From Escherichia coli (GTDB taxonomy: Bacteria; Pseudomonadota; Gammaproteobacteria; Enterobacterales; Enterobacteriaceae): DNA of 64,000 nt. The translations under genes were made by a program, and so were the position numbers. Below the pieces are notes generated by a model, which saw only the letters and a list, made by a program, of their open reading frames with translations, was not told the DNA's origin and ran no database searches. Shown piece by piece: positions 30,163 to 34,470 of this stretch (positions are counted from its first letter, which is position 1; the number at the start of each line of letters is the position of its first letter). The DNA lies in the NCBI RefSeq assembly GCF_003790525.1, contig NZ_CP033635.1. One strand, 5' to 3'.

Positions 30163-30876
30163 TCAGTGTTCCAGCGCGATAGCGCAAACATGTTCAAGCT
30201 TAGAGAGTGAATGGTATAGTTCTGGCAATGTCATTTTTTTCCTAATCACGACTTTAAGGTTAACTTCTATTCTTCCCTTTTTAACATCGCGAATAGTGAA
30301 TGCTTCAATAATATTTTTTTGTTGATTAATACACTCTATCAGGGCTTGTAGCCCTGATCTTTCGTCAAGAGTAACATGAACTTTTACTTTACCCGGAAAT
30401 TGATTCTTAGCTTGCAAAAAGAGCACAAAATAGCTGAGTTTTATAGCAATCATGAACAAAGCCGTGGTAACCAAAGCATGCATATAAAACCCAGCACCAC
30501 ATGTAATGCCCACCCCAGCCGAAGCCCAAACGATAGCTGCAGTTGTTAGTCCAGATATAGCATCGTCATGGCGATGAAGGATAACACCTGCGCCGAGAAA
30601 ACCTACACCGCTGATAATCTGGGCTGCCAGTCGCATCGGATCGCTACGTATATTCATCGAGATTTCAGCGTAATATTCTGCAGACTGAATTGATACAATT
30701 GTCAGAACACAACTGGCGACTGAAATAATGACGCACGTTTTAAATCCAACAGGCTTCCCTTTCGATTCTCTTTCAAGGCCAATAATGCCACCCAGGATAA
30801 ATGCGACGCAAATTTTGCCCAGTGTAATTAAGAGAGATTCTCCTTCACCGAAGAAGAGGAAGGACAACGTATTCAT
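30163..30876 (-). CDS. MgtC/SapB-family membrane protein
   Basis: 237 aa; N-terminal MgtC signature (...GGIIGLERE...) plus C-terminal soluble domain. Confidence 0.8.
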   Translation of the reverse strand: MNTLSFLFFGEGESLLITLGKICVAFILGGIIGLERESKGKPVGFKTCVIISVASCVLTIVSIQSAEYYAEISMNIRSDPMRLAAQIISGVGFLGAGVILHRHDDAISGLTTAAIVWASAGVGITCGAGFYMHALVTTALFMIAIKLSYFVLFLQAKNQFPGKVKVHVTLDERSGLQALIECINQQKNIIEAFTIRDVKKGRIEVNLKVVIRKKMTLPELYHSLSKLEHVCAIALEH

Positions 30877-30939
30877 ATTTCCTCCGGAAAAAAATCACCC
30901 CGAACTGTGTACGAAGGTCTCCTTTTCTGCCCCATGACG

Positions 30940-31923
30940 CTACGCGCCGTAGCTCTGGATATAGTGCTCTATCAGCGAAATAAGCCGCGGGTTATCGATG
31001 CTCTGCAGAATTGTGACCCGTGCACCTTTTGGTTCGGGAATCCCAACATTGAGGCGTAATGTGTCACGTCCATAGCAACAAGTCATTCCGCGTGTAATGC
31101 CTTCCAGTGAGACATCCAGATAATCTTCAGCCGTTGTTGCAAGAGAGGGATCCAGTAACCAAGCAACGGTTAACACATCGTGGATCCAACACCCAGGCAG
31201 ATTGCGGGTTTGCATAGAGTATGTAATCCACGGTCGAATGGTTTGTGCCAAATAACGGCTAAGCCCGTTTTCTGTTTTTGCCAGACGTTCCAAATCGGCG
31301 TGAAGCATTTGTGTTTGCGTTGTCACATCCATCGGGACCAGAGTGACTGGCGCACCGCTGGTGAGCACTGCATGAGCAGCCTCAGGGTCCAGACCAAAAT
31401 TTGTATCTTTCAGGTAGCCAGGAACATTGAACACGCCACCCATAACTACGATATTTTTTACCGCGTGAACAATCTGCGGGTAAAGCTGCAGGGCGATGGC
31501 TACATTAGTGAGAGGGCCGGTAGCAACCAACGTGATTTCGCCAGGATTACGACAGATGAGTTCACCTATTGCTTCAGGCGCATGAGGTTCTACCTTCTGG
31601 TACAATGCTGGGGCAGGAACATTCGTCCAGAGTTGCCGTAAACCAAACTGATCGACACCATGATCCAGTTTTTCACGCCAAGGTTGCGGATCTTCCCGGA
31701 GCGCACGCGAGGCACCACGGTATACCGCAACAGGAATATCCAATTGTGTAATGAGATCTCTAGCGACCGCATATCCCACGTCTACCGGCGTATTTCCGGC
31801 AACAGTTGTGATCATTTCCAGCGCGATTTGCGGTGCGGCAATGGCCAGCGCCAGCGCCAGACCATCGTCGATATTAGCGCCGGGAATGCCGTTCCCCGGA
31901 TCGCAGTCAATAATGATACGCAT
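30940..31923 (-). CDS. Inosine-uridine-preferring nucleoside hydrolase family protein
   Basis: N-terminal IIIDCDPGxDD aspartate cluster; start placed at the internal Met (MRIIIDCDPG) because the longer ORF would overlap the upstream LacI gene. Confidence 0.75.
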   Translation of the reverse strand: MRIIIDCDPGNGIPGANIDDGLALALAIAAPQIALEMITTVAGNTPVDVGYAVARDLITQLDIPVAVYRGASRALREDPQPWREKLDHGVDQFGLRQLWTNVPAPALYQKVEPHAPEAIGELICRNPGEITLVATGPLTNVAIALQLYPQIVHAVKNIVVMGGVFNVPGYLKDTNFGLDPEAAHAVLTSGAPVTLVPMDVTTQTQMLHADLERLAKTENGLSRYLAQTIRPWITYSMQTRNLPGCWIHDVLTVAWLLDPSLATTAEDYLDVSLEGITRGMTCCYGRDTLRLNVGIPEPKGARVTILQSIDNPRLISLIEHYIQSYGA

Positions 31924-31933
31924 CGATTCATTT

Positions 31934-32965
31934 TCACTTTTTCTCTGGTTGTACTTCATGCCCTTGGCAGCCACACGACTCTCCTGTTCGTAAATAAAAC
32001 TCAAATTCAACGCGGCGAACTTCTCCATCCCAATTTTTCAGCATGTCAATTGCCGCACGGGCCATCTTATCGACAGGTTGTCGAACAGCAGTTAAAGAAG
32101 GGACGTTGTAAACCGATTCTTGTGTTGCATTAAAGCAGACCAGCGCAACATCTTCAGGAACGCGCAGCCCATGTTCTGCCAGGGCGCGTAAACAACCGAG
32201 AGCCTGTTGTTCATTCGTCGCAAACAGGGCGCGTGGCAGTTGGTTCTCAAGCATGCGTTTTGTCGCTTCGTAACCGCCGGCGCGGGTATAGTTGGTCGAA
32301 AAAATCCATGAGGGATTGACCACTAACGATGAGGCTTCCAGCGCCTGCCGCCAACCCCGGATACGATCCTGAGTATTCAGCATTTCACGTGGGCCGCAGA
32401 TGATGCCGATGTCGCGGTATCCGTGATCAATCAGATGTTGTGTTACCAGCATTGCCGCCAGTTGTTCATCAACCTGGATAACGCTGACGTTAAGTCCAGG
32501 ATCCACACGATCGAGCATGACGCAGGGGGTACCGCTCTCCTGAATCAAATTGATATAAGGATGGCGATCAACACTGGTGTAGATCAGCCCGTCAACCTGA
32601 CGGTGCAGCATATTATTAATGAGTTCACGTTCACGGCAGCTACTGTCGCCTGCGTCTCCCAGCAGGAGTACTTTGCCATCAGCAAAGGCTTCGTGCTGCA
32701 GAGCATGAGCTATAGAAGCGATAAACGGGTTCGAGATGTCCGGCACGACTAGCCCGTAAGTTTGCGTACTCCCTGAAGCCAGCGCACGCGCGATGCCATT
32801 GGGTCGATAACCGGTTTTCTTAATTGCCTGTAGTACACGTTGCCGAGTCGCTTCGGCAACGGGGCGCGGACCATTATTAATAACGTAACTAACGACAGCG
32901 ACGGATGTCCCTGCTTCTTTTGCCACGTCAGAGCGTGTTACGCGTTGTGAATGTGATTGAGTCAC
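31934..32965 (-). CDS. LacI-family transcriptional repressor
   Basis: N-terminal HTH (...VTRSDVAKEAGTSVAVVSYVINN...) and periplasmic-binding-protein-like effector domain. Confidence 0.85.
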   Translation of the reverse strand: MTQSHSQRVTRSDVAKEAGTSVAVVSYVINNGPRPVAEATRQRVLQAIKKTGYRPNGIARALASGSTQTYGLVVPDISNPFIASIAHALQHEAFADGKVLLLGDAGDSSCRERELINNMLHRQVDGLIYTSVDRHPYINLIQESGTPCVMLDRVDPGLNVSVIQVDEQLAAMLVTQHLIDHGYRDIGIICGPREMLNTQDRIRGWRQALEASSLVVNPSWIFSTNYTRAGGYEATKRMLENQLPRALFATNEQQALGCLRALAEHGLRVPEDVALVCFNATQESVYNVPSLTAVRQPVDKMARAAIDMLKNWDGEVRRVEFEFYLRTGESCGCQGHEVQPEKK

Positions 32966-33069
32966 GAAGCACCTACCTAATTGCGTTCAGAGTGATTTTT
33001 TCCAGACAGCATAAGGCGTTATGACCCAAAAATCTTTGGTAAAGAACGCGCATCTCACGTTCTCTGGCC

Positions 33070-34470
33070 TTAAATTGCATCCTCGGGTAAGTTGAGATCC
33101 CGCCCGCGAGTCTCTGGTGCAAAGAACGTGGTCACCAGTCCAATCGCGGCCATAAAGGCGAAATAGATAGCGATTGGCCACCAGTGTCCGTAAAACGAGA
33201 GTAGCGCAGAGGCGATAAGTGGCGCTGTCCCGCCAGACATAATGGAACCGAGCTCTTTTGCAAATGCCATTTTGGTATAACGATTAGTGACACCGAAAAG
33301 CTCAACGCCCCACGCAGCCTGAACACCAAAAATACCCAGTGAAGCAAGCCCCATCCCGGTAATGATCGTCGGGATAACAATCCACGGCTCACGGGAATCC
33401 AGCAGCATAAATGCTGGAAAGGCATACAGGATCAGTAACAGGCAGAACCAACGATAGATGATACGTCTACCGAATCTATCGGACAGCCAACCCGCCAGAG
33501 GAATAATGGCAAATCCCAGAACGGATGCAATAAGTACGGCTGCCGTGGGTACGGACTCATCTACCATTAGTACTTTAGCGACATAACCAATGATAAACCC
33601 CTGAGCGAGATAAGAAGGACCATTCTCACCTATGCGTAATCCGACCATAGTCCAGAAGGCACGGGTCCGTTTCCAGAAGCTACGAGTGTCATGTTGTTGT
33701 TGTGCTTTTCCCTCACGAAGAACCTTTTCTCGTTCAGCCTGCAGAAGGGCTTTTTGACGTTCAAAGACTGGTGTTTCGCGTATATGACGACGAATTAATA
33801 GAGCGGCAGCAGCAATAAGAATGCTACAAAGAAAAGGAATACGCCATCCCCAGTTTAATAAGTCATCCTTGTCCATTTGCAGGACGATGAGCCAAACCAG
33901 TGAAGCCAGTAATGTTCCGCTGTTCGACCCCAGACCAATAACAGATGAAACTAGTCCACGTCGTTTAACGGGAGCATATTCACCAAGCATCACAGTACCG
34001 CCTGAAAGCTCCGCGCCAGCTCCCAGCCCCTGAGAAAATCGAAGGATAACCAGACATATCGGTGCCCAGACGCCTATCTGGGCGTAACTGGGGATTAATC
34101 CTATTAGCATGGTCGACATGCCCATCAATCCAATAGTGATAACCATGACAATTTTCCGACCATGTTTATCGCCTATCCAGCCGAACAGTAATGCACCAAT
34201 AGGGCGGGCAATAAACCCAACAGAATAGGCGGCAAAGCTGGAAAGTAATGCTATGACGGGTGTCACCTCCGGAAAAAAGACATCGCCAAAGATAATACCT
34301 GCGGCAAGTCCGTACAGAGCAAAATCGGCATACTCCATTGTAGTGCCTAGCCAGCAGGAAAAGGTAGCTCTCCAAAACTCGCGACGTCCCTCGGGGGTTT
34401 CCAGACGCTCCTGAGCTGCCTGTTGGTTATCCACTAGGGGAACAGAGGATGATGGATGATGTGTGTTCAT
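33070..34470 (-). CDS. MFS transporter (metabolite:H+ symporter subfamily)
   Basis: 466 aa, 12 TM segments, MFS motif GxLxDRxGRR (GWIGDKHGRK / LSDRFGRR). Confidence 0.85.
   Translation of the reverse strand: MNTHHPSSSVPLVDNQQAAQERLETPEGRREFWRATFSCWLGTTMEYADFALYGLAAGIIFGDVFFPEVTPVIALLSSFAAYSVGFIARPIGALLFGWIGDKHGRKIVMVITIGLMGMSTMLIGLIPSYAQIGVWAPICLVILRFSQGLGAGAELSGGTVMLGEYAPVKRRGLVSSVIGLGSNSGTLLASLVWLIVLQMDKDDLLNWGWRIPFLCSILIAAAALLIRRHIRETPVFERQKALLQAEREKVLREGKAQQQHDTRSFWKRTRAFWTMVGLRIGENGPSYLAQGFIIGYVAKVLMVDESVPTAAVLIASVLGFAIIPLAGWLSDRFGRRIIYRWFCLLLILYAFPAFMLLDSREPWIVIPTIITGMGLASLGIFGVQAAWGVELFGVTNRYTKMAFAKELGSIMSGGTAPLIASALLSFYGHWWPIAIYFAFMAAIGLVTTFFAPETRGRDLNLPEDAI

Follow-up and report, generated by a model that had tools for sequence, protein, structure and literature searches.

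A predicted LacI-controlled operon for riboside uptake and cleavage, with an appended MgtC-like gene, carried as accessory DNA in Escherichia coli

We analyzed a four-gene module at positions 30163–34470 of a 64-kb stretch of Escherichia coli DNA (NCBI RefSeq assembly GCF_003790525.1, contig NZ_CP033635.1). This whole stretch is called the window below, and all coordinates are those of the window unless a locus is named. Our results indicated that the module is probably a single autoregulated catabolic operon, in which a promoter and its operators precede genes for an MHS-type H+ symporter, a LacI-family repressor, an N-ribohydrolase and an MgtC-like protein; the operon would serve the import and cleavage of a riboside, and would have entered E. 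coli as captured accessory DNA. The four open reading frames (ORFs) of the module are co-directional on the minus strand. An earlier interpretation made from the letters of the DNA (hereafter, the sequence-only reading) had assigned these genes correctly, and had placed an IS66 nest and an ISL3 element (IS, insertion sequence) on the two sides of the module, where we also found them. The 100%-identical DNA of strain TUM9803 likewise carries these four genes in RefSeq, annotated with generic names. In order of transcription, the genes are the following.

33070–34470, minus strand: first gene, MHS-type MFS proton symporter, 466 amino acids (TIGR00883, 385.7 bits)
31934–32965, minus strand: second gene, LacI-family repressor, 343 amino acids, GTG start (matches to the RbsR, PurR, CytR and CcpA models over residues 5–310, each under its equivalog cut-off)
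30940–31959, with the ORF open to 32028, minus strand: third gene, IUNH-family N-ribohydrolase, 339 amino acids in RefSeq (Pfam PF01156, 3e-69 over residues 15–326)
30163–30876, minus strand: fourth gene, MgtC/SapB membrane protein with a C-terminal ACT-like domain, 237 amino acids (Pfam MgtC and ACT_4)

The first three genes form a trio that was kept together across a wide range of bacteria. A genome scan with the hydrolase gave seven close loci, and more distant contexts were reached through exact-protein look-ups; the loci came from Citrobacter koseri, C. amalonaticus, Raoultella, Enterobacter, Yersinia bercovieri, Providencia rettgeri, Xenorhabdus innexi, Cedecea davisae, Serratia inhibens and an assembly labelled ‘Mesorhizobium’. 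The order MFS–LacI–hydrolase was unchanged in all loci (16/16, about nine genera), and the flanking genes were unrelated from one locus to the next. The MFS protein was 63–97% identical across all related loci, and its gene was always upstream of that for the hydrolase. Even in relatives where the hydrolase was just 45–52% identical, its gene still directly followed the same MFS gene (63–69% protein identity), which suggests that the transporter–hydrolase pair is the ancient core of the system. This synteny, together with an operator conserved only at the promoter of the unit (see below), upheld the proposal of the sequence-only reading that the trio is a self-contained, LacI-controlled unit for uptake and hydrolysis.

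A promoter palindrome with a central CG is the classic arrangement for the LacI family. We found a 16-bp palindrome of the ATCTACGCGCGTAGAT type upstream of the MFS gene in 19 of the 19 loci fetched at that point. The motif TCTAC-N4-GTAGA, with zero mismatches, was present in every one of these loci and occurred nowhere in them except upstream of the MFS gene; the DNA around it was not conserved between loci. The palindrome was the perfect ATCTACGCGCGTAGAT in Cedecea and Serratia, and varied to ATCTACTCGAGTAGAT in Xenorhabdus and ATCTACGCGGGTAGAT in Yersinia. Within the 64-kb window the exact motif occurred only twice, at 34569–34582 and 34528–34541; one more match, with a single mismatch, lay at 8091–8104, and the one-mismatch search overall (three hits) was not above chance. 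The second copy was shared by E. coli, Citrobacter, Raoultella and Enterobacter, and was not found in the more distant genera. The predicted control elements are the following.

34567–34594, minus strand: predicted sigma-70 promoter (−35 TTGACT at 34594–34589, 16-nt spacer, −10 TAGATT at 34572–34567)
34568–34583, minus strand: predicted operator O1, GTCTACGCGAGTAGAT, an exact TCTAC-N4-GTAGA that overlaps the predicted −10
34527–34542, minus strand: predicted operator O2, ATCTACATGAGTAGAT, about 41 bp downstream of O1

Because the palindrome was exclusive to the MFS promoter in 19 of 19 loci, and because one of the window copies lies over the predicted −10, we regard control of the operon by the LacI-family repressor as a well-supported prediction. 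The repressor gene sits within the operon; thus, the unit would be autoregulated. Homologues of the LacI protein carried the Pfam LacI helix-turn-helix (HTH) and Peripla_BP domains. From the sequence we infer both the binding of this protein to the palindromes and the identity of the inducer.

Two further observations concern these control regions. The sequence GTGATCTCTATCAC at 34608–34621 is similar to a CRP site (TGTGA-N6-TCACA); its centre lies about 55 bp upstream of where transcription of the operon is predicted to start. It is weaker in Citrobacter, and might hint at catabolite control. In the assembly labelled Mesorhizobium sp. SP-1A (L017, 7466–10981), the trio showed 69–85% protein identity to that of E. 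coli, carried the operator ATCTACGCGCGTAGAA and stood in a GC-rich context; either the trio was transferred from one bacterial class to another, or the assembly is mislabelled or contaminated.

The hydrolase resembled the known nucleoside hydrolases in fold and differed from them in the details of its active site. Its AlphaFold2 model, with a mean predicted local distance difference test (pLDDT) of 86.7 and a predicted template-modelling (TM) score of 0.89, gave TM-scores of 0.82–0.88 to plant NRH and to E. coli YeiK at 27–30% identity, and its metal, ribose and catalytic motifs aligned with the active-site motifs of these enzymes. Residues invariant in the subfamily were Asp18, Asp20, Asp31, Asp32, the GPLTN motif (T151–N152), N187, D191–A195 (DPEAA) and the pair His260–Asp261. 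The DxDxxxDD fingerprint reads DCDPG-NGIPGAN-IDD; that is, the four aspartates are kept, and seven extra residues break the canonical spacing. This insertion was invariant in 18 orthologues and was found in 58 of the best 150 cluster representatives at 50% identity, and it was absent in every PDB nucleoside hydrolase that aligned over that stretch. The Glu of the plant NRH motif AEAN, two residues before the motif Asn, is an Asp in our protein (KDTN). In the alignment to YeiK, the base-contacting Tyr231 corresponded to an invariant Arg252 and Gln227 to Ser248, and the position matching His82 was not conserved.

The sequence-only reading had itself raised the possibility that this gene is merely the core rihA, rihB or rihC orthologue. 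We found that it is not: its NCBIfam scores were far under the equivalog cut-offs for RihA (161.4 versus 433 bits), RihC (153.5 versus 382 bits) and RihB (126.7 versus 459 bits). Judged by its conserved residues, the hydrolase is predicted to be catalytically competent and to belong to a distinct, uncharacterised subfamily of IUNH enzymes. We know of no insertion-bearing member of this subfamily with a known structure or substrate.

The start of the hydrolase gene differed among annotations: the mechanical ORF encodes 362 amino acids (to 32028), the RefSeq form 339 (31959), and the form annotated in SMS-3-5 327. Orthologues begin with MR[ILV]IIDCDPG, which in the window is MRIIIDCDPG at 31923, and residues 1–9 were modelled with a pLDDT below 50. 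We concluded that the true start is probably the ATG at 31923 (327 amino acids), and that the first 12 annotated residues are probably not translated.

For the MFS protein, the top NCBIfam match was TIGR00883 (metabolite:H+ symporter, MHS), over the full length of the model, followed by ShiA (277 bits) and ProP (258 bits); in PLSDB the GenBank-derived label is ‘MHS family MFS transporter’. Transporters of the MHS type (KgtP, CitA, ProP, ShiA) typically carry carboxylates and zwitterions. This habit, taken with the substitution to Arg252 in the hydrolase, suggests an acidic or otherwise unusual riboside instead of the common nucleosides as the substrate, a suggestion that we hold weakly.

The fourth gene begins 63 nt after the hydrolase stop codon. 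No conserved terminator, attenuator or promoter was found in this spacer (consensus fold −2.4 kcal/mol, with no conserved hairpin before a T-run), and folding downstream of the gene gave a z-score of −0.09. The protein matched PF02308 (1.6e-35) and ACT_4 (1.5e-4), and its structure model showed five long helices followed by a beta-alpha-beta-beta-alpha-beta domain, which matched ACT domains and the C-terminal domain of M. tuberculosis MgtC (2lqj, 14% identity); a sequence search of the PDB returned noise only. The closest NCBIfam model was that of YhiD (PRK09977, NF007431), the MgtC/SapB protein of the acid fitness island, which has the same architecture. The score was 107 bits against a cut-off of 214, however, and identity to K-12 YhiD was 37% over 142 amino acids of the membrane domain only. 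In addition, a search of 5426 complete E. coli genomes found yhiD DNA in 5419, chromosomal every time, whereas the module gene occurs in about 6%. The MgtC-like gene is therefore not the core yhiD orthologue, an identity that the sequence-only reading had also considered. Its orthologues form a subgroup of 236–239 amino acids found in Citrobacter, Mixta, Pantoea, Raoultella, Serratia, Providencia, Erwinia and Pasteurellaceae. To our knowledge, no function has been assigned to those MgtC/SapB proteins that fall outside the virulence subgroup.

A census of the gene neighbourhoods of this subgroup in 80 metagenome loci revealed three main contexts. In context A (20/80), the MgtC-like gene lay 64–95 nt after the hydrolase gene of the trio. 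In context B (32/80), it lay 25–130 nt after a pair of genes for a PhnP-like protein of the metallo-beta-lactamase (MBL) fold and an NHS-family nucleoside permease. Context C (22/80) was Pasteurellaceae-like, comprised about three lineages, and had the gene overlapping rluE. A neighbor-joining tree placed the main context-A clade within the context-B lineages (monophyly in 98 of 100 bootstraps), and a second context-A case (L068, with a Cedecea- or Dryocola-like flank) grouped with a different context-B clade in 95 of 100. The tree implies that the MgtC-like gene joined the trio at least twice independently and, when combined with the contexts, that at least three events placed it after an uptake operon of the proton-coupled, riboside type. 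We take this as moderate evidence that the subgroup is functionally tied to proton-coupled uptake of the riboside type.

The operon of context B (L027, 2897–5711; L047–L083, L107) is conserved in Enterobacterales and appears uncharacterised; divergent from it is a gene for a 726-amino-acid regulator, a fusion protein that combines a LacI HTH with a solute-binding-protein domain. On the Pasteurellaceae-like contigs, the MgtC-like gene shares 4 nt with the end of rluE, which encodes a 23S rRNA pseudouridine synthase (L092, 5250–6654; L081, L084–L103, L106, L108).

We detected the module in 341 of the 5426 complete E. coli genomes (~6%), at 286 chromosomal and 64 plasmid places, and on 38 PLSDB plasmids, almost all of them conjugative. 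It occupied at least three contexts: an island of the window type, with ISL3 and a carbamate-kinase cluster; a metabolic island of the SMS-3-5 type, found likewise on plasmid p399-2; and IncF plasmids, on which it lies between IS26 and panD/ISEc38. Several IncF plasmids from human blood isolates (hits H44–H49) matched only from position 30887 on, so that the trio was kept and the MgtC-like gene was wholly missing. Chromosomal loci of Citrobacter matched the module at 88.8% nucleotide identity from 30161 to 34621/34627 (blastn); the homology has one end exactly at the stop codon of the MgtC-like gene and the other about 157 nt upstream of where the MFS gene starts. The unit occupied a single chromosomal site, directly upstream of copA-ybaP-ybaK-ushA, in Citrobacter, Raoultella and Enterobacter sp. 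JUb54. These matches indicate that the E. coli module is a segment captured from a Citrobacter-like chromosomal locus upstream of copA. The DNA shared among E. coli copies and the elements on either side of it in the window are the following.

30029/30049 to 34678/34700, no strand: DNA common to E. coli module copies (megablast)
27213–29963, minus strand: left flank, IS66 nest, with an intact IS66 (27213–29744) within an older IS66-family remnant (29745–29963)
34893–36316, plus strand: right flank, ISL3-family element with 48-bp terminal inverted repeats and a frameshifted transposase

In the intact IS66 (27213–29744), TnpA, TnpB and TnpC each scored above the NCBIfam cut-off, and terminal GTAAGCG repeats were seen at 27213 and 29738–29744; the older remnant keeps a TnpA fragment (29747–29878) and an inverted repeat (29957–29963). 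No target-site duplication was visible around the ISL3 element at 34893–36316 (left flank TTATTACCGT, right flank GGGGGGTAGT). Contiguity of the two ISL3 flanks therefore cannot be claimed, and we dropped the reading of a simple insertion; recombination mediated by IS elements, instead, probably joined the module to the carbamate-kinase cluster. Other copies of the module were flanked by IS26/panD, by IS4/IS256 or by a truncated TRAP transporter gene. A composite transposon was rejected, since the ends differ (IS66 on the left, ISL3 on the right), the ISL3 element lacks a duplication, and other copies are flanked differently. The sequence-only reading had described an accessory islet flanked by IS elements. 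Its accessory nature stood, given the presence in 6% of complete genomes on both chromosomes and conjugative plasmids; on the same three grounds, the idea that the IS elements are the ends of a mobile unit did not. We concluded that the module spread in E. coli by IS-mediated mosaic shuffling among IS-rich islands and IncF plasmids, and not as a composite transposon.

Taken as one operon, the module would work as follows. When no inducer is present, the LacI-family repressor would, as far as sequence can suggest, occupy the two 16-bp palindromes, one in the −10 region and the other in the early transcribed region, and keep the operon off; in the presence of the substrate or its product, the operon would be transcribed. 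The symporter would then bring in the riboside, and the Ca2+-dependent enzyme of the IUNH fold would cut its N-glycosidic bond to yield ribose and a free base. The substrate would probably not be a plain nucleoside already served by RihA, RihB or RihC. The MgtC-like product would be a co-transcribed accessory membrane protein with a cytoplasmic ligand-binding domain of the ACT type, in a role tied to H+-coupled riboside uptake.

Several observations weigh against this account. The MFS protein scored 385.7 bits, under the MHS subfamily cut-off of 443.45. The predicted promoter is the only promoter-like site on the correct strand; it is a pattern match only, with 9 of 12 consensus positions, and the region held fewer such matches than shuffled sequence did. 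The insertion loop of the hydrolase (residues 21–30) was modelled at low confidence (mean pLDDT 65), the idea of an acidic riboside draws on a single aligned residue and on what transporters of one family tend to carry, and full-text literature searches found no published work on this locus. Other points concern the fourth gene. It was absent beside the trio in most genera, as it was in Raoultella sp. BIGb0138, whose trio directly adjoins copA, and on the IncF plasmid copies described above; in two metagenome trio loci (L046, 3702–4412; L079, 3595–4304) it was a pseudogene, one copy having an internal stop and the other a frameshift; and in context C its neighbor is rluE, with no transporter. 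Because the MgtC-like gene is absent or a pseudogene in so many trio loci, the trio evidently works without its product.

These same absences and lesions favor the explanation that the MgtC-like gene is a passenger, which was carried along because it happened to separate the trio from copA on the donor chromosome, and which has no functional tie to the trio; in Citrobacter, Raoultella and Enterobacter it does sit between the hydrolase gene and copA. We doubt this explanation, while taking it more seriously than the other rivals. Homology to Citrobacter stops exactly at the stop codon of the MgtC-like gene, which suggests that the gene travels with the trio and not with copA. Moreover, orthologues end another operon with a nucleoside permease in 32 loci, and the phylogenetically separate lineage L068 likewise places the gene after the hydrolase gene. 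A quite different explanation would make the protein a virulence factor of the Salmonella kind, which promotes survival in macrophages and low Mg2+ through the F1Fo ATPase. The MgtC proteins of Salmonella, Mycobacterium and Pseudomonas do share its two-domain plan, a PF02308 membrane domain with an ACT-like cytoplasmic domain, and the island also holds a SPATE-type S6-peptidase gene. However, the protein missed the Salmonella MgtC equivalog (NF011912) at 80.1 bits against a cut-off of 255, matching it only in the N-terminal membrane domain (residues 20–147), and its C-terminal domain is just 14% identical to that of M. tuberculosis MgtC. The window held no P-type ATPase gene of the mgtB type near the MgtC-like gene, no Mg2+-sensing leader lay nearby, and in Citrobacter the ATPase encoded downstream is CopA, with an HMA domain. 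The protein also falls in a separate subgroup of Enterobacterales and Pasteurellaceae, its close orthologues occur widely in Mixta, Pantoea, Erwinia, Raoultella and Serratia, and IncF plasmid copies of clinical origin have lost its gene. We therefore consider a virulence role highly improbable: the protein is not a virulence MgtC of the Salmonella type, and the hint of intramacrophage survival in the sequence-only reading found no support, given the missed equivalog, a subgroup common in non-pathogens and the absence from several IncF copies.

Two other alternatives concern the substrate. The module could serve ordinary nucleoside salvage, duplicating RihA/B/C and NupG/NupC to give extra capacity for uridine, cytidine or inosine. 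Consistent with this, the best NCBIfam and PDB matches of the hydrolase were RihA, RihC, RihB and plant uridine/inosine hydrolases, the catalytic His–Asp pair of the non-specific and pyrimidine enzymes is kept, and the LacI protein is similar to RbsR, PurR and CytR, which are regulators of the ribose and nucleoside type. We nevertheless think salvage rather unlikely. Identity to characterised enzymes is just 27–30%; the fingerprint carries its invariant seven-residue insertion, an invariant Arg replaces the base-contacting Tyr, and the His82 equivalent is not conserved; the MHS-type transporter is outside the known nucleoside transporter families; and its long-term retention in addition to the rih genes suggests a role that is not redundant with theirs. 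Alternatively, the enzyme might act on an N-riboside that is not a nucleoside or on a ribosylated metabolite, such as nicotinate or nicotinamide riboside or a ribosylated secondary metabolite. The altered fingerprint and base pocket, the MHS-type transporter and the large, entirely uncharacterised subfamily would fit such a substrate, but neighbor genes in related loci are mutually unrelated and give no hint on the fate of the released base. We regard this narrower proposal as unlikely, and keep the more general reading of an operon for import and cleavage of a riboside.

Comparison with known systems placed the module near two of them. The hydrolase shares the IUNH fold with RihA, RihB (YeiK) and RihC (TM-scores of 0.78–0.88), as well as the Ca2+-binding aspartates, GPLTN and the catalytic His–Asp. 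It differs from these three enzymes in its identity to them (27–30%), its scores (127–161 bits versus cut-offs of 382–459), the seven-residue insertion in DxDxxxDD and the Arg in place of YeiK Tyr231; in addition, its gene is accessory instead of core, and comes with a dedicated transporter and repressor. The uridine-utilisation operon of Corynebacterium glutamicum, uriR-rbsK1-uriT-uriH, follows the same logic, in that a LacI-type repressor, an MFS transporter and an IUNH hydrolase serve nucleoside uptake and cleavage. In contrast, the module proteins scored 136 bits against a cut-off of 450 for UriH and 155 against 550 for UriR, and the module lacks a ribokinase gene, has a transporter of the MHS type and carries an appended MgtC-like gene. 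The module thus sets itself apart from the uri operon and the rih genes by its hydrolase subfamily, transporter family, operator and MgtC-like gene.

The window contained two further gene groups near the module. Beyond the ISL3 element, at 37099–45532, lie genes for a carbamate kinase (NF009007, 629 bits), a 516-amino-acid permease, and YlbE/AllG-like, FdrA/AllF-like and AllH-like proteins, together with genes for an ankyrin-repeat protein and a divergent AllS/PunR-like LysR regulator. This cluster looks like a paralogue of the oxamate carbamoyltransferase/carbamate kinase branch of ureide catabolism. In Providencia rettgeri (L005), the same cluster (72–85% protein identity) adjoins the trio in convergent orientation and has an extra amidohydrolase gene. 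We considered the cluster as a part of the module and rejected this: a search of the window found no exact operator copy in it, its orientation differs between E. coli and Providencia, and no remnant of the Providencia amidohydrolase gene was found. On the other side, at 21663–25487, is the gene for a 1274-amino-acid serine protease autotransporter of the S6 family (SPATE-type). It belongs to a segment of about 20 kb (~9.1–30 kb) that is absent at this position in TUM9803; the DNA that matches this segment, at 99.5–99.8% identity, comes mainly from poultry-associated E. coli.

Taken alone, the module adds one to the accessory catabolic operons of E. coli islands, and its practical consequence is small. 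Even so, about 6% of complete E. coli genomes have it, and among its carriers are conjugative IncF plasmids that are widespread and come from clinical isolates. The module also provides, in its hydrolase, a representative of a large IUNH subfamily whose metal-binding fingerprint is altered, and the gene order that links one MgtC/SapB subgroup to two different proton-coupled, nucleoside-type uptake operons offers a modest new lead. As a speculation that we think improbable as a whole, the subgroup of 236–239 amino acids could be a dedicated partner of proton-coupled riboside importers, possibly as a sensor of the ACT-domain type through which transport or the local flow of protons is adjusted, and the pairing of an insertion-bearing IUNH enzyme with an MHS transporter could mark a widespread, unrecognised pathway for acidic or non-canonical ribosides. 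If true, this would give the first functional handle on the MgtC-like proteins that are not virulence factors.

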